Assembly (NCBI GenBank): GCA_051294375.1
Contig: CM119267.1
Span: forward strand, 22,817,486 to 22,881,485
DNA length: 64,000 nucleotides
From: Paraspadella gotoi
Taxonomy: Eukaryota > Animalia > Chaetognatha
Direction of reading: 5' to 3'
The position numbers and the translations under genes were made by a program. The notes below the pieces were generated by a model that was given only the letters and a program-made list of their open reading frames with translations, did no database searches and was not told the origin of the DNA. Within the stretch, counting starts at the first letter, position 1. The number at the start of each line of letters is the position of its first letter. Positions 2,461 to 18,176 of this stretch are shown piece by piece.

Positions 2461-2869
2461 GAGAGAAAGAGAGAGATACATTTATTTCTTTCAATCTTAT
2501 TTCCATCTCCCTTCCTGCCTCCTTCCCTCTCTCTCTCTATGTTTCTCCCTCTCTCTCCCTCTCCCTCTCTCTCTTTTTTTTTCCTCTCTCAGACACGTCT
2601 CGGTCTCAATCTCGTTAAATTTCCCGAGGGTTATAACTTAGAGCCTCGAGGGCGTTTCACAGTGCCAACTCGGATTATGACAACAAAAATTATTAAGCGG
2701 AAAGAAAAAAAAAGGGTCAATTTCTGGTTTAATACAAAATCTACCCTCTATTATTTATTACTTTAGAATTAAAGATCTACGTTTTTAAAAATCCTTTCAA
2801 ACTATACTTTTAGTATTAAATTTACCTTTAAACTACAGTTAATTATTTTAATACATGTACCATACTTTA

Positions 2870-3025
2870 AACAGAGTTACTGAGTTTTGATGTTACAAAA
2901 TGCTCACATTTTCGCAGCGTGCTCGAGCTTAGATGCTGCGAGATGCTCACCTTTCAGCAGCGTCCCCGAGTTTTGATACTGCAAGATGCTCACCTTTCAG
3001 CAGCGTCCCAGAGTTTTGATGCTGA
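2870..3025 (-). repeat. 43-bp tandem repeat (~3.5 copies) spanning the talin exon 8 donor
   Basis: Unit CAgcATCAAAACTC.GGGACGCTGCTGAAAG|GTGAGCATCTTG. GTGAGCAT starts at 2993, 2950 and 2907. Confidence 0.85.
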
Positions 3026-3139
3026 ACAATGGTCGCCCGTCGAGGTGAAAGGAAATCGTCGACCATGAGTTCCTCTTCGTCGCCATCGATGCCCAGATGG
3101 TCTTGGCCTTTTTTCTTCTTGAGGATGATGTCGATGTAG
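2994..3139 (-). CDS. TLN1: Talin, coding exon 8 (F3 end/neck)
   Basis: YIDIILKKKKGQDHLGIDGDEEELMVDDFLSPRRATIVQHQNSGTLLK. TTCCAG acceptor, G|GTGAGC donor. Confidence 0.94.
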
Positions 3140-3493
3140 CTGGAATTAAAATTTAACCAAAATATTAACAAAAATGATGACAAAATGAAAAAAATGACGC
3201 TAAAATAATGAAGTAAAACAAATTAAACAAAAGAAAGTATTTTGAATTGAATTGAATTGAATTGAATTGAATTGAATTCAAACAAAAGAAAGTAATTGAA
3301 TTCAAAATTCAAAATAAAAGAGCCGACTTGTAAATATTTTACAAAAATTTTTTTTCACAAAACTTGTATTTTTTATTATAGAAAATACAAATACTAATAC
3401 AGGCACAACAAGCTTAGTAGACCAACAACGAAAGTAATGAATATATATATATAATTATATATACATAAAGTCCCTAATAGAAACCATAACTAC

Positions 3494-3627
3494 CCGGCTA
3501 TGAGTTGGGAGATCTGTTCCCCTTCTGTTGTTTGAACTGAGTAATAAGATTCTGAGTAATCGCCGAAGTCGAGGGTGAAGGAGTTGGGGGATGCGGCCCA
3601 CCGTTTGACAGTCGTCAGAGGCCACAC
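3494..3627 (-). CDS. TLN1: Talin, coding exon 7 (F3, integrin-binding PTB-like subdomain)
   Basis: VWPLTTVKRWAASPNSFTLDFGDYSESYYSVQTTEGEQISQLIAG, with the conserved KRWAAS. TTCAAG acceptor, GG|GTAGTT donor. Confidence 0.96.
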
Positions 3628-4080
3628 CTTGAAGGAAGAGTTGATTACGAATTTGATAATATGTGATAATCATAAATTGCTTAAACGAACAGAAAAGACA
3701 GAAAAATATATCGTTCGGATCGCCAATAACGAAGAAAATTTTTCATTTTCTTTTCTCTATTGCTCGGTGACACTCAATGTAATTTGAATATTGTATTGAT
3801 AGGCGAAATCTATATAAATTCGTAAAGGACTTTGTTTTAGGTTAGGAATAAGAAAATACACTTCAGGTAATAAAATTTCAGACATGTTTTAATTTCGTCT
3901 GAAACTAAGCGTTCTGAATTCATACTTGATGGGTAGCGAGGGAAAAGTATGAAATGAAGCTTTATTGCCGTCCCTAATGATATTTCAAAAAATATTCTAC
4001 CGTTTCGACCAAAGATTTTAGCAAGTATCTTCCGTATGTTTTATGGATAATTACTAAATTGATTTGTCAACAAAACTTAC

Positions 4081-4167
4081 TTTTAAAAAGTCTTTCGTTT
4101 TCTCGTCCATCCGAATGACGCTGTCCTTCGTCACTCCCAAGAGTCGAGGTACAAGTCGATTCTTTCC
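4081..4167 (-). CDS. TLN1: Talin, coding exon 6 (F3)
   Basis: GKNRLVPRLLGVTKDSVIRMDEKTKDFLK. CTACAG acceptor, AAA|GTAAGT donor. Confidence 0.96.
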
Positions 4168-4322
4168 CTGTAGAAAAAGATAAATAAGTCCGTCAAATAT
4201 AATCTGTCTTTATGATGGTACTTACTTTTAACTTTGCGCGATACATTTATCAATATTATCAGTTATAACAGGAAACAATAATAGTAATTATTTATTAATA
4301 ATAATGATTTAAGCAGTTTCAC

Positions 4323-4462
4323 CTTCATCTTTTCCTTGACGAGAAAGAAAGTGACCCCGTAGGTTTTCAAACTTCGCGCCAAATGAGTGTAGGAGACTTT
4401 AGCGTCCAATTCCACGACGCCGGCGTGTTTCCGATGCTCAAAGTAGATTTTCTTTTCGATTT
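4323..4462 (-). CDS. TLN1: Talin, coding exon 5 (F2/F3)
   Basis: (E)IEKKIYFEHRKHAGVVELDAKVSYTHLARSLKTYGVTFFLVKEKMK. CCAG acceptor, AAG|GTGAAA donor. Confidence 0.96.
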
Positions 4463-4640
4463 CTGGACGTAAAATTGATTCGGCGTTAAAGTGCAATCAT
4501 TACATTCAAACTTTAAATAAAACTAAGGAATAATTCGCATCAAGAAGAATTAAAATGCAATGAAGGACTTCAGGTTATATGGATTGCTCAAACCTTTTGG
4601 TTTTTAATTTACAAAAAATTCTTCCTAAAAAAGAACTTAC

Positions 4641-4804
4641 CTTTGGTTTTGAGGTACTCCTTGGGCAGAAACTCTTTGAGGTCGATGAAGCCGCGTTTGT
4701 GCTTTTGTTCGACGTGATCGCCGAATTGGATCTGCGCCTGGAGGCCGGCGAACTCCAGCGCCTTCTCGAGGGAAACGGGGTGGTTGCCGTTGATGATGGC
4801 GTCT
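4641..4804 (-). CDS. TLN1: Talin, coding exon 4 (F2)
   Basis: (R)DAIINGNHPVSLEKALEFAGLQAQIQFGDHVEQKHKRGFIDLKEFLPKEYLKTK. CCACAG acceptor, G|GTAAGT donor. Confidence 0.96.
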
Positions 4805-5100
4805 CTGTGGACACAGTGGGGGGGTAAGAGTATAAATAAGTGAGGTTAGGTTGGTGAGTAAATGCTAAAAAGTTAATTATATTTTATTCTCATTAATTCC
4901 CTTGTTTTATTCATTCTGGACAGTAATCGAGAGGGCACTATTTTCGAATCTTGTTTTAAAACATAAGAACAGTTTTTCAAACAGAAAAGATAAGGAGAGA
5001 TAAGGGAAAAGCAGGTTCTGTTGAGTCCGCCTACGCGTCAAGGGCCTAGTCAGCCTTGTCGGCGTAGTAATCGAATAAGGTTTTATGATCGTTTCTAAAA

Positions 5101-7189
5101 ATGGCGACCGCCCTGCCGCATCTACAACTGCAACGGGCCGTCCGTACGGCCGAAGAAACCCTTCGGCGGTTCCTGGACGCGCATCTGGACGCCGCCGAGT
5201 TTCAGCGCCAACTTGAACACTCTGGCGACGAACTCCCGAACTACGTTCAGCGGTCGATGTTATTTCCTCAAAGCGCCTTTAGATTCGCCGATTGCGACGC
5301 CACTCACCTCAAGTTCGTCGCGGAAAAGGCCAAGAAGTTTAATCTACTCAACATAAATAACAAGCAGGCGCGCGCTTTGGAAATCTTCAGGAAAGCGCGA
5401 AATTTTTTATCGCATCAGGTTGAGCGAAAGAATGTCAGAGAACTGAGAAGCAGACGGACCGAATGCGATAAGTACGTTGGAGAAGTCAAGGGCGCGTTGA
5501 AGATTTTTCAAAATCCCGGGGATTATGAACGCTCTCTCAACGCGATAGTGGCGCCGTCGACGGCCGCGGAGGAGAACGAACTGACTCCCGGTAACGACGC
5601 CACTATTGACGCTACTTGGGGAGATCGAGGGGAAGGTGCCGTCGGTGTCTCCGTCAAAGGAACTGAGACGAAGATCGTGGCGCCGCTGGAAGAGAGCGCA
5701 GCCGAGTCGAAGAGTCGATCCTTCAACTTGAAGCGGGTTACGGATGGAAAACAACACGAGATCGTCGAGGAGGGCGGGCGGAAGTTTGCGATTCTTGATT
5801 TGGCGCCGTCGACGGTCGAGCGAGAAACGATCCTTGGGAATCAGAAGATTACCGTCGAGGCGAAGATGAAGATCCCGACGTCGCCGGTGCGGCTCGAGGT
5901 CTGCGGCAGCGACGCTGCGAGCGACGATGACGGCGATGACGAAAAGCTTCGACTGACGGTGAACACGATGACCAAAGATAACGCGATCGGCGTCGACGCG
6001 CAGGTGGCGTGCTCGTCGAAGCAGGTGCGATTGGTCGAAGCGGAAAGTGGCGGCGTTTTACAGATGCAGCGTCTTTGCGAAGACGACGAATGCAGCGAAG
6101 AATTAGAAGTTGAGGAAGAATTAGAACCCGACCCGATCAAGAGCGGAAAAAGATTTGGTAAATCGAATCGAAGGTTGACGAGAAAAAGAAAAGTTGTCAC
6201 TACCAAAGCTAACGTCGAAATGAGAGGAAAAAGGACGAAGAAATTCGGACTCTTAAAAATGACTTACACGATCGATTACAATCTCGACGGTTACCCTTTG
6301 CATCAAGCGGCGAGAGACGGAAACGTTCAACGAATTCGCGATCTCTGTCAAACGTTGGACTTTGGCAGCGTCAATGCCAAAGACGAGAAAGGCAACACGG
6401 CGCTCCATCTGGCGACGATCGAGGGCAAAAAGAAATCATTTGACGAACTCTTGCGTCTCGGAGCGAAAGTCGACGTCAAAAACGCGGAAGGTCAAACTTG
6501 TTTGATGATCGCGGCGTCGACGGGAGACGAAGCCACGCTCGATTCTCTGCTCGACGCCGGCGCGGGTTTGGACTTTGTAGACCATGACCAAAAGACGGCG
6601 TTGTTGCTCGCCATCGAAGGCGGCTACGCGGAAGTCGCTCGTCGACTCTGCGATCGAAAAGCCGACGTCAACTTCCACGAGGGCGACGTCTGCTGTTTGA
6701 GAAAAGCGTTGGAGGCCTGCGGAGATTCGGGAGCGGATTTCGAGCCGGTCGTCGCCGCATTGCTCGAGGGAGGCTACGATGTCGACTGGACGAATAAATC
6801 GGGACTCTCCACTTTGGAATGGTCGAGGAAGACCGAGAGGCTTCGGTGGTTGCCGGAAAAGTTTCGATCCATGATGGAGGCCGTCACGAAGCGGGAATTG
6901 GATTTTCTTCAAGCGGCGTCAGAGGGTAACGAGAGTTTCGTCAGGGAATATTTAAAACAAAAGGGCGACGTGAACGCGCGCGGCACCGAAAACGAAACGG
7001 CGCTCATTCTCGCTTGCGAGAGACAGGACGAACGGATGGTCAAGAGTCTCTTGGAACACGGCGCCAATCACAGTTTGCGAAGGCGTGATGGAAAAGGCTC
7101 CATTGAAATTGGCAGGGAAACGGACAATCACGCGATTGTCTGGATGCTCTGTGAAAAGTCGAAAGATGATCCACGAATAATTATCGAAG
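5101..7189 (+). CDS. Nested gene, exon 1: putative DZIP3-like HEPN domain + linker + ankyrin repeats
   Basis: Long GC-rich ORF starting AAAATGGCG. Contains LFP..DCDATHL..RKARNFLSH, then about 8-9 ankyrin repeats (YPLHQAA, NTALHLA, QTCLMIA, KTALLLA, ETALILA) at ~6292-7150. Probable donor AG|GTGAAA at 7190; GTATGA at 7250 is an alternative phase-1 donor. Confidence 0.85.
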
Positions 7190-7371
7190 GTGAAATGAGA
7201 ATTCCTAATATTTGTAGTCGGGCATTGCATAAGTTCACCACGCCTATAAGTATGACACCTTCAGTCATGACCCGGTGGCACATTGAGTACGAGACAATTA
7301 AGTTACACTCATAGTAAGTAAGCCGAATAATCAGAAATTAATAATTTATTCCATCCTCAAACTTTCATCAG

Positions 7372-8348
7372 CTTCCTCACCGAAAATATCCCTGGACCTG
7401 ATCGAGCATATTACCATCCCCGCGGTCAATCCTTTTCTCTCCGATCGATTCCCTGTCGGCGAAGGATTCGTCGTCGCTTTTGTCGGCAGCAAGATTCTCA
7501 TCTGGGGCGGACGACAGCTATCACGACTCGACGGGACAATCGTCTTCCTTCGTCCCGACTTCATCCACGCCGCCGATCATAACGACCTCACTCGGTGGAG
7601 CCACGTCCGAGCCTCCGGCGACATCCCGCCACCCACCGCCAACTCCGCGGTCGTCGTCTTCGGCGATCTAGTCTACATTTACGGAGGTCAAACGCCGCTC
7701 GGTCGAAGCAACGAGATTTATTCTCTCTCGGTCGACGGAAACTTCGCCAAGTTGTCCGTGGACCTTCTCTCTCCTCTCCCGGGCCAGATCTGCTGGGCAG
7801 AGGGTTGGATCCATGGCGGCAGGCTCTGCTTCTTGCGAGCCAACCTCGGGGAGAATCCTGAAGTGGCAGAGTTTGATCCCGATGAAAATACGTTTCGGGT
7901 TTTGCCAACGAAGGGAACGCCTCCCGGTTTGAAGCCTACTATGGACTGCCACCCTTCCTTGGCGAAGTTGAGGAACGAGTTGTTCTGTGGAAATCCACTA
8001 GGGTCGGGGCAGTGGCACTCGTTGAACCTAGAGACGTTGGAGTGGACGATCGTTTCCGCGGGATTGCTAAAATCTTGCGCAGATCTCACCGTCTCTGCGA
8101 TTTCAGAGTCGGAGGTTTTGATCGTCGGCGGCAAAGGGTCCAATCAGGTCTGGGTGTTTGACGTCGAGAATCGTCGGGCGCGGCGGCGAAGGAACATCAA
8201 GCAGAGAGCTTGCAAGGAGGGAGAGTATTACAAGCACAGCGCCGTGTCATTGTGGATTGACGGCAAAGTCCCAAAAGTGATCTGCTTCGGCGGATACAGG
8301 AAAGCGACGAGACATGCTGAACATGTTCTACAATTCTACGTTTCGTGA
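7372..8348 (+). CDS. Nested gene, exon 2: Kelch-type beta-propeller
   Basis: Acceptor TTTCATCAG at 7371, phase 1, in frame with ORF 7752..8348. Kelch-like motifs ILIWGG, SGDIPPPTANSAVVVFGDLVYIYGG, WHSLNLETLEWT, VLIVGG..QVWVFD and HSAV..VICFGG. Stop TGA at 8346-8348. Confidence 0.82.
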
Positions 8349-8719
8349 TCAGGGGGATTTGGATGCTACTGATTTATTAAATTGTTATTAAATTATTAAA
8401 ATTACGATTTTTTCCTCCTCCATTTTTTTCTTTTTTTTTTACTTTCTTTTTCCTTTTTTCGCTTCTCGGCAAATACCATTTTATTGAGCTTGATTCCAAG
8501 GGCTTGATTTTACAATCACCAAATTATTAAATTTTAACTAATACACATTCCATCAATTATTTTTAAAAAACACCGTTTCTTGTATTTGACGAGTATTTTT
8601 TAGCGTCATATTAATTTTTTAAAAAATACATTTGCGTTGTGATTTAAATGAAAACAAATAAACAGCTGTACTCACACTCCCGCACCTGCCCATCTCACCC
8701 CCCCCCAACTACTCGGCAC

Positions 8720-8936
8720 CTGCACTGAACGTAGAGCAGATTGAGCTGCACCGGATCCCGCGCGTCGACGTTCTGATCCGAGAAGAAGAACTTCCGCTTG
8801 AGCAGCAACGTGACGGCCTCGTCGATGCCTTGCTCGCGGAGAGTCTTGGAGTGGTCGAGCCAATTGATGTCGTCGTCCGTCGGGATGCGTCGCTTCATCT
8901 CCTCCATCTTGCGGGTGCTGCGGTCGAGGGTCGCGC
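8720..8936 (-). CDS. TLN1: Talin, coding exon 3 (F1/F2)
   Basis: (G)ATLDRSTRKMEEMKRRIPTDDDINWLDHSKTLREQGIDEAVTLLLKRKFFFSDQNVDARDPVQLNLLYVQC. ACAG acceptor, AG|GTGCCG donor. Confidence 0.96.
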
Positions 8937-9977
8937 CTGTGGGTAGGGGGAGGTGTCGAGGGTGGGTTGTTGGTAAGCCGCGGGTGAGTGAGGGGAAACA
9001 TTTTACGGCTGACGATGGTTTTTTTTTTTCGAAAACTATGAAATGTTTTTTTTAAATTTTTAATCTGAACAAGATACACTCAGGAATGGTATTTTCATTC
9101 TGAAATACTATTATAAATACATATATCACATAATAATTTTGCTCAGATTCCTCTTCAATCTTATGCAACGAGAATTCCCGAAAATTCCTCCGCAAAAGAT
9201 TTCAGAATCAAGCAATAACATCCGGGTCTCGGAATGGCAGTAATTATCCAGCGGAAGTTTGGCTTTTGGCCTTATGGGGCACGTCGAGCGTTTTTCTTCA
9301 CCGAGAAAGCGGCACGCTTTTACTTCCCCCCCCCCACTACTCGGGGAATGGCTGGGTCACGTGATCTCTCACCATCTTAAACCCGTCGAACGATCATCAC
9401 AGGAATTCGTAGTTCACCGGCGGAAGTAAACAAACAAACAGGAATAGACGATTTGTGGGGGTCATCGGTTCTGGTAGTCGTTAGGCCTTAGGGGGTGCCC
9501 GTCTCAAGGCAGTTTAAATATAATGTAATTTAATTTTAATACAGACTCATGAGTCATGAGTTTTCCTTAATCTCCTTTCCCTTTTTCTGGATCAAGATCT
9601 TTTTTTGGGAATAAGAAAAAAGAAAAAAGAACAATAAAAAAAAAAAAAGAATCGAATTCCGCGCATAACTTTCCTTCTTTTTTTTTTGTTTTGGCTTCGA
9701 AGAAATCGTGACTCGAGGCGACGGAAAAAGAAAAGAGGGAAAAACTAAGGAGACAGAATTAATTGGATTCAAGAAAGAAAAGATGGAAATAGAAAAAAAA
9801 CAAAAGGGAAGCGATTAGAAAATTGGGCAGAGAAAATAGAAAGAAATGAGACGAAATTGAATGAAAAGAAGGAAACAATGAAACGAACGAACGCCAATGA
9901 GCAAACAAACAAAAAAGGGATGACCCTAATCAAAAATACCAAAAAGATAAAAGAGAAAAAAAAGGATAAGGGAAAAT

Positions 9978-10419
9978 AAAACTAGATCGGTCAATCAAAT
10001 GTGTTGCGCCGCAGTGACTACACAAGTCTGAAACAAATGCACAAGTCTGGTGGTCCTATCACCACAGATGGATTAAAGCTGTTTCTTTCGCAGCGCCCTG
10101 TAAAACCAGCCTCTTCACAAGAAGCGTTTAGTAATGTCTTACCAGTCTGCCAAGTATTAATTAAAATAGGTTTCTTAGCCCGAGTATTTATGACACGTAC
10201 TGTATCGGCATCCCGTCTTTTATTCTTTATAGTTTTAGGATTTCCTAAAGGCGGCGCTAGCAGTCACTTAGATTGAGGTTGACAACAAATGAGCAACCAA
10301 CTATAGGCGAGCATTTTTAATGTAAGTGGGACAAACCGACGGACAGACATACCGAACGACCAACCGAAAAGTAACTTATAGAGTTGCTCCGCAAGTACTC
10401 GCGTAGCAACTAAAAAAAA
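9978..10419 (+). mobile_element. Putative non-autonomous Helentron/DINE-1-like element
   Basis: Starts AAACTAGA and ends with a (GACG/GACA/GACC)-type microsatellite, TTATAG, a hairpin AGTTGCT..AGTACT..AGCAACT (10382-10411) and an A run. Confidence 0.5.
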
Positions 10420-10523
10420 GGCCCCCGAAAAAGTCAACGACCACCCAAAGAGGATTATAATCCCTTCCCCGACCTGCAACCCGCTCATCAAAAACACTCT
10501 TCCCCCGAAAAATCTCCACCCAC

Positions 10524-10750
10524 CTTTCCGCAGCGTTCCCATCTTGGTGGCGAGGGGGCCGGGGTGTCCGTGGGGGTGATGGTGGTGCCCGAGCGGGTCG
10601 TCGAGCGGGACGTCGTGTACGAGGCTGTACTCTTCGTGATTGGCGATTCCGATCTTGGAGCAAATGACGATCATGAGTTGGGCGACCGTGTTGGAGTCGT
10701 CCACGTTGAGGGTTTTGACGGTTCCGTCCAACATGCGGACGCGGAGGAGT
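10524..10750 (-). CDS. TLN1: Talin, coding exon 2 (F1)
   Basis: Acceptor CTCTCCAG, then (R)LLRVRMLDGTVKTLNVDDSNTVAQLMIVICSKIGIANHEEYSLV...GTLRK. Donor G|GTGGGT. Phase joins exon 1 across a ~23 kb intron. Confidence 0.96.
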
Positions 10751-10842
10751 CTGGAGAGAGGAGGGGGGGGTGGGGGGGGTGGAGGTTAGAGATTTTGAAA
10801 CTTTTGAAAGTGTTGGATTTAAAGGTTTCGTTGTTGCGTTAA

Positions 10843-10925
10843 ATTTGTACAACCAATAGAAAAATTATCCATTCATTTAATAAATGAGTTATCTTTCCCC
10901 TGACTTTGGACAGGCTATACTGGCT
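10843..10925 (+). repeat. Dispersed ~80 bp repeat (copies at ~29071-29150 on +, ~36976-37072 on -, plus the duplicated copy near 15720)
   Basis: Shared core AATAtAAAAATTATcCATTcATTTAATAAAT..ATCTTgCCCcTGACTTTGG..CAGGCT. Confidence 0.75.
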
Positions 10926-11475
10926 AATGGCTATAGTAGTTTAAGATCTTCCTTATTTATGAAGTGGTATATTATTTCAAAGAATGTTTAATTTGTTTTA
11001 ATTAAACTTTGACTATCTTGCTTCTTATGAGAGAGAAAAAGAAAAAAAGAAAGAAACACAAAGAGTAAGAGAGAGTTAGATAGAGAGAGAGAGAGAAATA
11101 AAGAGATTGAGAAAGCGATTAAGAGAGAGAAAAATAAAGAAAGGAAAGTAGATCAACCTTGCGCTTGAAACTTGATGCTTACTTTTACCCCATCCCGACT
11201 CTACCCGACCCAAAAATAAGTAATTCCCACTCAACCCTTACTCCAAAACCGGAACCGGAACCATAAATGCCAAACGCCACGCCCACTCGCCCAGTCGTCC
11301 ACATTTCAACCAACTCAGCAATAGTGATCGAATTTGAAGGCAGAGGCAGAGGGGAGGGGGAGACAAACTTGGTTATCTTTTCAAGTTTACTCGACTCGTA
11401 AAAATCACTTACTGGGGAGAAATAGAGCGAATTAGAAATGAGTAAAAATTACTGATGGGGAGAGAGAGAGAGAGG

Positions 11476-11551
<76 letters not shown>

Positions 11552-12387
11552 AATAATTTAACCCACGGCTTTGCTATTTCCCCCCCCCAGAAAAAAATAC
11601 TCATATCCCGGTCAAAGCGACCCTCGCAATTGCGACTATATAACCTACAGTTTCCCTTTTTTTCCTTTCAACTTTTTTCGCTAATTTGACTCAACAAAAG
11701 CGACTTATTTTTTTTCTTTTTTTAACAAAACTCGTTAGTCCAAAATGTTAGGAAATGAGTTTCACGGTTGAAAATAACGAGGTGTGAGGTTGAAAGAGGG
11801 AGGAGCGGATATTTTCGGGGGGTGATTAATTTTCGAATGAAATTATCGATGTGAATTTGCTCAAGCCTCAAAAAATTCAAGTAAATAAGTTTAAATCTCA
11901 ATAGAGCACAACGATCTTCATATTTTCATGTTGCGACTCGATCCTATAGTTTATTCTGGAAATTTCCTAAATATAATGCGATTAAAGCCTCGTCATCGTG
12001 TTTCAGTAAACAAATCGAATCGAAAATAACCAGTGGCTGCGGCAATACATTTAAATCCCTTTTAAAGGCTAAGAATATTTTAGTACTAAAAAAAATATGT
12101 TTACTAGTTTTGATATATGACATATGATAAAAATTCTTTGATCAAGACATAGAATATGAAATATAATAAAATAAAATAGAATAAAAAAATATTTAAAAAA
12201 TATCAAAAAAAGATTTAAGATAATAAAAATTTTAAAAAACAAGAGAAATAAAAAGTTATAGAGACGAAAAAAAAAAGAAAAAAAACTATAAAATTTCAGG
12301 GGTTAAGTAAGTCACTATTTACGATTTACAAATATCGGAACTGCGAAAGGTGATACGAGGGTGAATTGGAACAAAATGAACATTGTG

Positions 12388-12516
12388 GGTCGAGACTGCT
12401 TCGAAGGCTTTCATCTGGGAGTGGTGAAGTGGTGAATGAATGAATGAATGAATGAATGAATGAATAAATGAACATGGCGGTCGAGACTCCTTCGAAGGCT
12501 TTCAGCTGGGAGTGGT
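12388..12516 (+). repeat. ~38-bp direct repeats flanking a (GAAT)n tract
   Basis: GGTCGAGACTgCTTCGAAGGCTTTCAtCTGGGAGTGGT at 12388 and 12479. Confidence 0.8.
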
Positions 12517-15254: not shown

Positions 15255-15376
15255 NNNNNNNNNNNNNNNNNNNNNNNNNAGTACAACGACCACTCACAAA
15301 GAGGATTATTATATCCTTCCCCAGACTGCAACCCGCTCATGCAAAAGCACTCTCGCCCGAAAAATCTCTCACCACT

Positions 15377-15625
15377 CTTTCCTGGCAGCGTTTCCAATTC
15401 TTGGTGGCGAGGGTAGGGCCGGGGTGTCCTGTGGGGGTGATGGTGGTTGCCCGAGGGGTCGATCGAGCGGGGCGTCGTGTACGAAGGCTGTACTCTTCGT
15501 GATTGGCGATTACCGAATCTTGGAAGCAAATGACGATCATGAGTTGGAGCGGCCCGGGTGTTATGGAGTCGTCCACGGTTGAGGGTTTTTGACGGTTCGT
15601 CTCAAAAGTGCGGACGGGAGGAAGT
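15377..15625 (-). pseudogene. Frameshifted duplicate of talin exon 2 (probable assembly artefact)
   Basis: QLMIVIC..IANHEEYSL is recognisable but broken by many 1-nt indels. It lies in the noisy second copy of a tandem duplication, next to a 25-N gap. Confidence 0.7.
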
Positions 15626-16435
15626 CTGGAAGAGAGGGTGGGGGGGGTGGGGGTGGGGTGGGAGGTTAAGAGATTTTTGAAACTTTGAAAGTGTTTGGAA
15701 TTTAAAGGTTTCGTTGTTGCGTTAAATTATGATACCATACCAATAGAAAAATTATCCATTATTTTAATAAATGAGTTTATCTATTTCGCTGACTTTGGAC
15801 TAGGCACTATACTGGCTAATTGGCATATAAGTAAGTTTAGTAAGAATCTTCCTTATTTATATTGAAGTGGTATATTTTATTTTCTAAAGACATGTTTAAT
15901 TTTGTTTTAATTTAATACTTCTGACACTCCTCATCTATGGCTTCTTATGAAGAAGAGAAAAAGAAAAAACAGAAGAAAAAAAGAGTAAGAGAGAGTTAAG
16001 ATAGAGAAGATGAGGAGAAGATATTAAGAGATTGAAGAAAGCGATTAAGAGAAGAGAAAAAATAAAGATAAGGAAAGTAGATCACCTTGCGCTTGAAGCT
16101 TGATGTAGCTATACCTTTTACCATTCCGACTCTAACCAGCTACCCAGACAAAATAAGTATATTCCCATACTCACAACCTTTTACTTCCAAAACCCGGACC
16201 GGAAACCATTAAATGCCAAACGCCAAAGCCACATTCTCCCAGTCGTACCATTGCAACAACTCAGCAATAGTGATCCGAATTTGAAGGCAGAGGCAGAGGG
16301 GAGGGGGAGACCAAACTTGGTTATTCTTTTCAGTTTACTCGACTGTAAATACTTAATGGGGAGAAATAGAGCGAATTAGAATTGAGAAAAATTACTGATG
16401 GGAGAGAGACGAGAAGAGAGAGAGAGAGAGAAGGG

Positions 16436-16491
<56 letters not shown>

Positions 16492-18176
16492 CAAATATTT
16501 AAGCACGGCTTTGCTAATTTCCCCCCCACCCAGAATAAAAAATACTCATATCCCGGTCAAGCGACCTCGCAATTGCGACTATATAACCTACAGTTTCCCT
16601 TTTTTTCCTTTCAAACTTTTTTCGGCTAATTTGACTCAAACAAAAGCGACTTATTTTTTTTCTTTTTTTAACAAAAACTCGTTAGTCAAAAATGTTAGGA
16701 AATGAGTTTAACGGTTGATGAAATAACGAGTGTGAGGTTTGAAAGAGGGAGGAGCGGATATTATTCGGGGGTGATTAATTTTCGAAATGAAATTATCGAT
16801 GTGAATTTGCTCAAAGCCTCAAAAAAATTCAAGTAAATAAGTATTAATCTCAATAGAGCACAACCGATCTTCATATTTTCATGTTGCGACTCGATCCTAT
16901 AGTTTATTCTGGAAATTTCCTAAATATAATGCGAATTATAAGCCTCGTCATCGGTTTCAGTAAACAAATCGAATCGAAAATAACCAGTGGCCTGCGGCAA
17001 ATACATTTAAATCCCTTTAAGGCTAAAGTATATTTTAGTACAAATAAAAAATATGTTTACTAGTTTTGATATATGACATATGATAAAATCTTTGATCAAG
17101 ACATAGAATTGAAAATTATAATAATAAAATAGAATAAAAAAATATTTAAAATATCAAAAAAAGATTTAAGTAATAAAAAATTTAAAAAACAAGAGAAATA
17201 AAAAGTTATAGAGACGAAAAAAAAGAAAAACTATAAAAATTCAGGGGATTAAGTAAGTCACTATTTACGATTTACAAATATCGAGACTGCGAAAGGTGAT
17301 AACGAGGGTGAATTGGCAAAAACTGAACATTGTGGGTCGAGACTGCTTCGAAGGCTTTCATCTGGGAGTGGTGAAGTGTTGAGATGAATGAATGAATGAA
17401 TGAATGAATAGAATAGAATGAACATGGCGGTCGAGACTCCTTCGAAGGCTTTCAGCTGGGAGTGTTTACAATTTAAATATCATTCGGCACAGGCAAAGTG
17501 GTAAATTGTTAATGATAAGAATATACATGTTTGTTTAAAAATTCAATTCAGTGTTTTTACATTTTTACGAACATACGTGCAACTCACTGTCCAGGTTGGC
17601 AAACGCATGTTGAAGCATGCCCTCGTCTCGTTCAAAATTTACTGATCGACATCTTGATATCGGGACGGACGGAACATATCTACGATTTGACGTCGTTCTC
17701 AAGTTTTAAAACCGAGAATTTCCGGTCCGAAACCGAAATTCAAAATTCGAAAGCAAAAAGTCTGGATGTCATTTGGTCGGCATAAAATGCTAAAGCGGAA
17801 GCCGATTTCACACAGAGTTGGTCGGTCGGTCGTCAGACAGAAAACTCTGTATTTCCATTATTATTATTATTATTATTATATTATTAATTATTATTATTTT
17901 ATTTATTATTATTATTATTATTAATTAATTATTATTATTATTATTATTATTATAATTTTCATCCTCAAATGTTGTCTTAATTAATTTTTGTGTATATCTA
18001 TCTCTTACTTGTATTTCCAAAAATACCTTTTTTTAGATATATTCTTCACTCTTCAATCACAAGTTCAACATACACTTTTGACATAACTAATATGTAGCTG
18101 TCACCCTGCCAGGAGTTTACATTATCTTTTCCGCAATCGAAAGACGGCTATTAAAAAGAGCAGAGAGAGAGGAGAG

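Follow-up and report, generated by a model that had tools for sequence, protein, structure and literature searches.

Gene structure and transcript

Positions 5101 to 8348 of a 64,000-nucleotide (nt) stretch of contig CM119267.1, referred to below as the window, hold a transcribed, spliced gene on the plus strand, the predicted product of which carries a probable HEPN RNase domain, ankyrin repeats, and a Kelch propeller. The coding region begins with an ATG at 5101 and ends with a stop at 8348, and it draws on two open reading frames (ORFs) of that strand, of 741 codons (5089 to 7314) and 348 codons (7302 to 8348). When 5101 to 7189 was joined to 7372 to 8348, translation gave 1,021 amino acids (aa) with a single stop, which was terminal. 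A preliminary description of the locus, made from the sequence, had given a spliced product of about this length, and its coordinates, splice, and length proved to be right, both by translation and by contigs of runs X7 and X8. The gene and its parts are as follows:

4825..8412, plus strand: span of one spliced X7 contig (record 19), including about 275 nt 5' of the ATG; strand inferred from GT..AG, and the contigs do not reveal the true transcript ends
5101..7189, plus strand: coding part of exon 1 (aa 1 to 696 plus one base), with the HEPN-like domain, the middle region, and the ankyrin repeats (ORF, translation, spliced contigs)
5116..5550, plus strand: probable Swt1-like HEPN RNase domain, aa 6 to 150 (ESM Atlas, own profile with shuffles, alignment, predicted helices)
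5551..6285, plus strand: middle region, aa 151 to 395 (about 245 aa), with no family match (library searches, charge count)
6286..7170, plus strand: ankyrin array, aa 396 to 690, 8 to 9 repeats, two of them degenerate (Pfam, register by eye)
7190..7371, plus strand: the only intron of the coding region, GT..AG, phase 1, 182 nt, between the ankyrin and Kelch parts (spliced joint seen in X7 and X8)
7372..8348, plus strand: exon 2, six-bladed Kelch propeller, aa 697 to 1021, of the KLHDC2/LZTR1 type by best matches (Pfam, PDB, GG doublets)

Contigs from X7 and X8 lacked precisely this intron, while the unspliced form was present in runs X5 and X6. Since a single X7 contig (4825 to 8412) carried both exons across the splice joint, the ankyrin and Kelch parts lie on one transcript, as the preliminary description had held. 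Two separate genes, a HEPN-ankyrin ORF ending at 7314 and a Kelch ORF, were thereby ruled out. No run was recorded as RNA, and X7 and X8 were treated as RNA-derived because they contained spliced joints of the talin gene described below. They seemed to be duplicate filings of a single data set, given the same talin depth of 42.7 and totals of 76.8 and 77.7 million letters, and were therefore counted once as evidence, the sample being different from the possible source run.

Three further observations concern the gene itself. The intron holds a short high-copy repeat at about 7212 to 7289, where summed contig depth was in the thousands and many contigs ended loosely at 7212 to 7213 and at 7289; no further copy was found within the window. 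An out-of-frame ATG, read by eye 16 nt upstream of the start codon, begins a small overlapping frame at 5085 to 5216. In run X9, a contig over the HEPN and middle regions (4627 to 6143) had a depth of 38.7, against 9 to 14 over the ankyrin and Kelch parts; additional copies of this 5' part could account for the excess, as could an enrichment library, depth being no measure of copy number.

Evidence for an N-terminal HEPN domain

The preliminary description had placed an R-N-x3-H motif at R100 to H105 (nt 5398 to 5415), and R100-N101-x3-H105 was found there, as the sole RNxxxH of the whole protein. An acidic motif, E18-x3-R22, lies upstream at nt 5152 to 5166. Active HEPN domains are described in section 6 of PMC3710099 as having Rx4-6H with a polar residue (N, D, or H) after the R, together with an upstream Ex3[KR], and both features are present here. 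In shuffles of aa 1 to 160, RNxxxH arose in 3% and the looser Rx4-6H in 79%, so that the motif by itself is weak evidence.

In the ESM Atlas, HEPN_Swt1 clusters made up 17 of the 30 feature matches, the best at 0.91 and 0.90. A Swt1-like profile was then built from 30 PF18731 domains collected from bacterial genomes, with the query left out, and it aligned with aa 9 to 108 at 15.5 bits (P = 6.5e-7). That score was reached by none of 2,000 plain shuffles (maximum, 7.2) and by none of 2,000 shuffles in which RNFLSH was fixed in place (maximum, 11.8); scores below 0 were obtained for the reversed sequence and for other segments of the protein, and 559 pieces of other reading frames reached 9.8 bits at most. 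Profiles of other HEPN families scored 4.0 bits for RiboL-PSP (built from 23 of 26 loci), 2.2 for HepT-like (21 of 30), 1.4 for MAE_28990 (7 of 9), and 2.8 for ApeA (3 of 3). Swt1-like thus appears, from sequence comparison, to be the best of the five HEPN families compared, with DZIP3 and CXorf38 outside the comparison. The same family had been named by the Atlas features, a different method, before the profile was made.

The domain was also aligned jointly with 29 of the 30 bacterial PF18731 domains, the short L032 being omitted. H105 faced His in 29/29 rows, R100 faced Arg in 28/29, L70 faced Leu in 28/29, and N101 faced Asn in 19/29, while E18 and R22 faced an E-x3-R in 8/29; overall identity to these rows was 10 to 20%. 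Both structure models gave a helix at 87 to 104, a loop, and a further helix from 112, so that the motif falls at the helix end and loop start, with the single-sequence model, too, ending the helix at 104. This is the position described for the HEPN motif in section 7 of PMC3710099, at the end of a helix and the start of the following loop.

A considerable number of results weigh against this assignment. The N-terminal domain had no match in Pfam, PADLOC, NCBIfam, or PDB, and with the HMMER filters on, PF18731 gave none at E ≤ 1 or E ≤ 10, its curated cutoff of 27.5 bits not being reached. The hhalign comparison returned an E value of 0.006 with a probability of 6%, and 15.5 bits corresponds to an E value of about 0.016 over a Pfam-sized library. 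When a near-identical profile was run against PDB, it gave 19.6 bits for Csx1, 15.9 for Csm6, and 12.1 for HepS, together with 17.2 for a non-HEPN P450, so that 15.5 bits would not decide a blind search. Half-sample profiles ranged from 4.8 to 17.3 bits, 6/12 of them below 8. In the Atlas, the shared-feature counts were 156 and 165, against 170 typical for the same family, and the top match (0.93) was an unnamed cluster. The alignment-guided model, with a predicted local distance difference test score (pLDDT) of 87, is partly circular, as the Swt1 alignment was used to make it, and the unbiased single-sequence model had a mean pLDDT of 52. Fold searches with the former returned the HEPN chains Csm6 (4RGP; Z = 7.1; root mean square deviation, 4.2; 119 residues aligned) and AbiF (8VZ6; Z = 6.5; 3.9; 133 residues), as well as AbiA and other HEPN chains, but these all tied with non-HEPN bundles (Z up to 7.3), and none reached Z ≥ 8. 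Foldseek gave nothing at E ≤ 0.001, the fold search with the single-sequence model gave generic bundles only, and a homodimer prediction for aa 1 to 150 with the alignment unused scored 0.00, which is uninformative either way.

These results bear directly on the alternative that the N-terminus is an ordinary helical bundle for oligomerization or adaptor binding, its RNxxxH due to chance, and the protein an ankyrin-Kelch scaffold without nuclease activity. The 3% chance rate of the motif, the missing curated family match, the hhalign probability of 6%, and the acyl-CoA dehydrogenase bundles that tie with HEPN chains at Z values of 6 to 7 are all in its favor. The profile match, however, needs more than the motif, as the motif-keeping shuffles showed; it takes in three motif blocks, in order, over 100 residues, singles out one HEPN family, and agrees with the Atlas features, a different method that had already named that family. 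An unrelated bundle is accordingly regarded as improbable, and aa 6 to 150 very probably form a HEPN domain with an intact set of E-x3-R and R-N-x3-H motifs.

The HEPN domain put forward in the preliminary description is supported at moderate strength by Atlas, profile, and alignment. As to the subfamily, a Swt1-like assignment has better support than the DZIP3-like label of that description, on profiles that covered Swt1 but not DZIP3, and Pfam found neither. The Q..LFP...D..L stretch may also resemble the DZIP3-like pattern. For the DZIP3/hRUL138-like family PF18738 there was no Pfam match, yet PF18731 gave none either, and 0/251 genomes held PF18738 members over the cutoff from which an unfiltered profile could be made. 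The earlier label was not far off, because Swt1, DZIP3, and AbiD/F are named together in PMC12165695 as matching, by structure, the same set of HEPN queries. With this domain moderately supported and a single transcript in hand, none of the outcomes that the description had named as speaking against it, such as ankyrin and Kelch parts on separate transcripts, was obtained, no homologue having been found in which R100 and H105 could be compared.

Ankyrin repeats, Kelch propeller, and middle region

The presence of ankyrin and Kelch domains is firm from their library matches. Pfam Ank_2 matched at E = 6.7e-32, and Ank was matched in 6 stretches; by eye, 9 registers were counted in aa 396 to 690, two of them degenerate, so that the "8-9 ankyrin repeats" of the preliminary description was a fair count. 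The C-terminal Kelch propeller that it proposed was likewise borne out by PF24681 on exon 2 (E = 1.9e-18), and the best PDB match of that exon was to KLHDC2 (E = 1.1e-12). Five GG doublets occur at a spacing of about 50 aa (aa 742, 801, 845, 949, and 1003), and six blades were recognized by eye, five with a GG doublet and one without. As the only intron is in phase 1 at the ankyrin/Kelch border, module swapping would fit the gene structure.

Between the HEPN and ankyrin parts, aa 151 to 395 had no match in Pfam, PADLOC, NCBIfam, PDB, or ESM Atlas. Toward its 3' end (nt 6076 to 6225), an acidic block at aa 326 to 350 (net charge, -10) is followed by a basic block at aa 351 to 375 (net charge, +9). 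The basic stretch could serve in nuclear localization or nucleic acid binding, or the two blocks could form an internal charge latch. This region may be a new domain; a TRADD-N identity was also considered for it.

Other modules were sought in the library scans. No kinase domain was found in Pfam scans of both exons, no KEN nuclease was matched in Pfam (the C-terminus is Kelch), no NACHT or NB-ARC NTPase module was found in Pfam or NCBIfam for any part, and neither BTB/BACK nor any other ligase-adaptor domain was detected.

Homologue searches and coding variants

For the region of aa 1 to 170, 625 candidates were obtained, none at E ≤ 0.1, and phmmer over 1.84 billion representative proteins gave 0 homologues of the domain. 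The Kelch exon was compared with longer proteins (2,981 candidates, none confirmed), although this was a weak test. None of 208 pattern matches among metagenome loci was confirmed, plasmids gave one chance match (E = 8), and a mixed alignment search returned 8 PF18731 proteins among 7,999 candidates, with ankyrin or Kelch in none. The protein itself was not returned, so the lineage seems poorly sampled.

Ten coding variants were found across four runs, of which seven were synonymous and three missense (I258M, L828V, and A939S). With 77% missense expected, this is an excess of synonymous changes (P = 0.002), though the sites are linked. None of the 10 fell within aa 1 to 160. In placement, 9/10 lay in the 977-nt Kelch exon and 1/10 in the 2,089-nt exon 1, mostly synonymous and linked.

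Part of this evidence, and the Kelch matches, would suit a protein with a real HEPN domain that acts as a cellular regulator, its ankyrin and Kelch adaptors bringing an RNase or RNA-binding HEPN domain to a fixed host complex for RNA decay, stress response, or ubiquitin ligase-linked turnover. The closest solved Kelch domains are those of KLHDC2 and LZTR1, and both of these proteins are Cullin substrate receptors. The gene is also expressed in the RNA-derived contigs with no challenge on record, its long exon 1 holds only one of the 10 variants, and Swt1 and Las1 are HEPN proteins with housekeeping roles (PMC3710099, section 9). Housekeeping HEPN proteins are, however, conserved across eukaryotes, whereas no relative was detectable here among the 1.84 billion representatives; the missing relatives point to rapid evolution or to a restricted range, but sparse sampling of the lineage would explain them as well. 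Moreover, the eukaryotic Swt1 HEPN domain is described, in the available part of the literature, as lacking the motif that is kept here. A regulatory role is therefore considered somewhat unlikely.

Location within a talin intron

The whole gene lies within an intron of a talin gene and is antisense to it. The nesting, the family-less region of about 245 residues, and the upstream E-x3-R are points absent from the preliminary description. The relevant features of the host gene are as follows:

8720..8938, minus strand: FERM exon of talin, upstream of the host intron (E = 4.6e-30 to talin-2 6U4K by phmmer; spliced)
4805..8719, minus strand: talin host intron of 3,915 nt, enclosing the whole nested gene (CT..AC joint 4804/8720 in X7, X8, and X11)
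4641..4804, minus strand: talin exon downstream of the host intron (spliced contig joints)
About 4322-4462, 4079-4166, 3494-3625, and 2992-3139, minus strand: further talin exons (joints in one 2,340-nt contig with 8720 to 8938)

The 2,340-nt talin contig (X7/X8) showed CT..AC joints, one of them skipping 4805 to 8719, and the exon at 8720 to 8938 was about 74% identical to talin-2 by our own count from the alignment. In run X11, from another organism, the talin exons were about 82 to 89% identical and the 4804/8720 joint was the same. Cover of the nested gene in X11 did not extend beyond 33 nt of simple repeat, the uncovered part proving nothing, and run X10 had no useful cover at the locus. 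The host gene appears by sequence likeness to be an animal-type talin, and the organism is on that ground probably an animal.

The position of the gene raises the alternative that it is a recent mobile or viral insertion without a settled function, or that its HEPN domain is a noncatalytic module for RNA binding or dimerization. An intron-poor gene that lies within the intron of another gene, and whose own intron carries a repeat fragment, would be consistent with the former, and motif-less HEPN domains have been proposed as RNA receptors (PMC3710099, in the part available), which would suit the latter. The catalytic-type residues are nevertheless all present, the ORF is intact and spliced with an excess of synonymous variants, and depth in the possible source run was level with the flanks, although depth does not give copy number. 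Both possibilities, taken together, are judged very unlikely.

The 64-kb window is eukaryotic and rich in repeats. About 2.2 kb including the talin 5' exon is duplicated at 10435 to 12500 and 15284 to 17450 (88% identity), and the second copy (15284 to 17450) has broken frames and adjoins an N gap; the pair represents either a tandem duplication, one copy of which has decayed, or a second copy that was poorly assembled. An Rfam scan of 2800 to 11000 gave no match, and a bacterial promoter scan, irrelevant to a eukaryote, stayed at chance level.

Proposed function

The gene is read, tentatively and with a probability of roughly 0.47, the highest of the readings considered, as encoding a defense RNase whose HEPN domains would be brought together by trigger binding to the ankyrin or Kelch modules. 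RNA cleavage, ligand gating, and an immune role are proposed from family knowledge and analogy. Given a HEPN domain, catalytic activity is likely. HEPN proteins typically homodimerize (PMC12165695, in the available part), and a metal-independent active site would form from two paired copies. At rest, the HEPN domains may be kept separate or blocked by the C-terminal modules or by the middle region with its acidic and basic blocks; binding of a ligand or foreign protein to the Kelch or ankyrin surface would join two chains, and their pairing would release cleavage of viral or self RNA. The gene would then be a lineage-specific defense effector, as animal proteins with an N-terminal HEPN domain and ankyrins or propellers are described, in the available parts of PMC8195603, PMC3710099, and PMC8260672, as immune proteins with lineage-specific expansions.

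Several findings count against a defense RNase. The recognized domains include no STAND, kinase, or death-fold switch, no paralogues were found within the 64-kb window, and, as no homologue was detected, conservation and expansion, the usual signs of an immune gene, are without support.

A bolder form of the proposal, an animal single-chain immune RNase built on a bacterial-type Swt1-like HEPN domain with no NTPase or kinase switch, seems rather doubtful. Ankyrin and Kelch would then sense the trigger directly, and the middle region would be an undescribed switch or RNA-binding domain. If true, this would represent an independent route to RNase L-style defense in which the Kelch exon would serve as an exchangeable sensor.

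Comparison with known systems

Among known HEPN families, the Swt1-like domains (PF18731), with the active versions of the Ava_2192 type in PMC3710099 (Table 1 and section 9), gave the best profile and Atlas match, and E-x3-R, the conserved Leu, and R-N-x3-H are in register. The present domain differs in lying below Pfam detection, at 10 to 20% identity to the 29 bacterial rows. The bacterial Swt1-like members found were fused to helicase, DUF499, or integrase parts, and the eukaryotic members of the Ava_2192 type are listed in PMC3710099, as far as available, as solo domains.

With the DZIP3/hRUL138-like and CXorf38-like HEPN proteins (PF18738), the shared plan is a HEPN domain at the N-terminus plus C-terminal repeat modules in an animal, these domains being fused to ankyrin, NACHT, DEATH, and others (PMC3710099, same part). 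HEPN-NACHT expansions occur in anthozoans according to the available part of PMC8260672, and that of PMC8195603 has 4 HEPN+Ankyrin rows (Lingula and Stylophora) and describes oyster HEPN-Ig-DED-TRADD-N-WD40 proteins with the propeller at the end. In contrast with these invertebrate immune proteins, no NACHT/STAND, death-fold, or TRADD-N module was recognized here, the propeller is Kelch, and there is no PF18738 match. The searched part of the source file for Figure 4 of PMC8195603 has 5 Kelch rows, with HEPN in none, and "kelch" occurs 0 times in the available text of PMC3710099. No HEPN-Kelch combination came up in the literature searched, in which coverage of subscription literature was thin. 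The preliminary description had recognized no described gene with this architecture; within that literature this holds for HEPN with Kelch, whereas invertebrate fusions of HEPN+ankyrin and of HEPN...WD40 propeller type have already been described, so that the novelty is lower than the description implied.

The description had also likened the protein to RNase L. The likeness in logic stands, in that ankyrin repeats and a HEPN superfamily nuclease occur in one chain and sensor-gated RNA cleavage is the proposed mode of action. Unlike RNase L (ankyrin, pseudokinase, KEN), this protein has no kinase and no KEN, its putative nuclease is N-terminal rather than C-terminal, and it has an additional Kelch propeller. 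Membership of either the RNase L or the NLR class therefore fails, because kinase, KEN, and STAND are all missing. In PDB and Pfam, exon 2 matched best to Kelch substrate receptors of the KLHDC2/LZTR1 type, but no BTB/BACK was detected here and the similarity is limited to aa 31 to 174 of the exon product.

The gene thus combines in a new way parts familiar from invertebrate immune proteins, namely, a probable Swt1-like HEPN domain, ankyrin repeats, a Kelch propeller, and a family-less middle region, placed in a talin intron. Invertebrate HEPN-repeat fusions are, in the available literature, predicted immune RNases, the predictions being made from domain architecture. This protein is compact, its catalytic set is intact, its transcript is confirmed, and it has neither a STAND nor a kinase module; it therefore offers a clean object for the question of how such nucleases switch on when these modules are missing, and if the Swt1-like assignment holds, the subfamily would extend from solo eukaryotic domains to sensor fusions.

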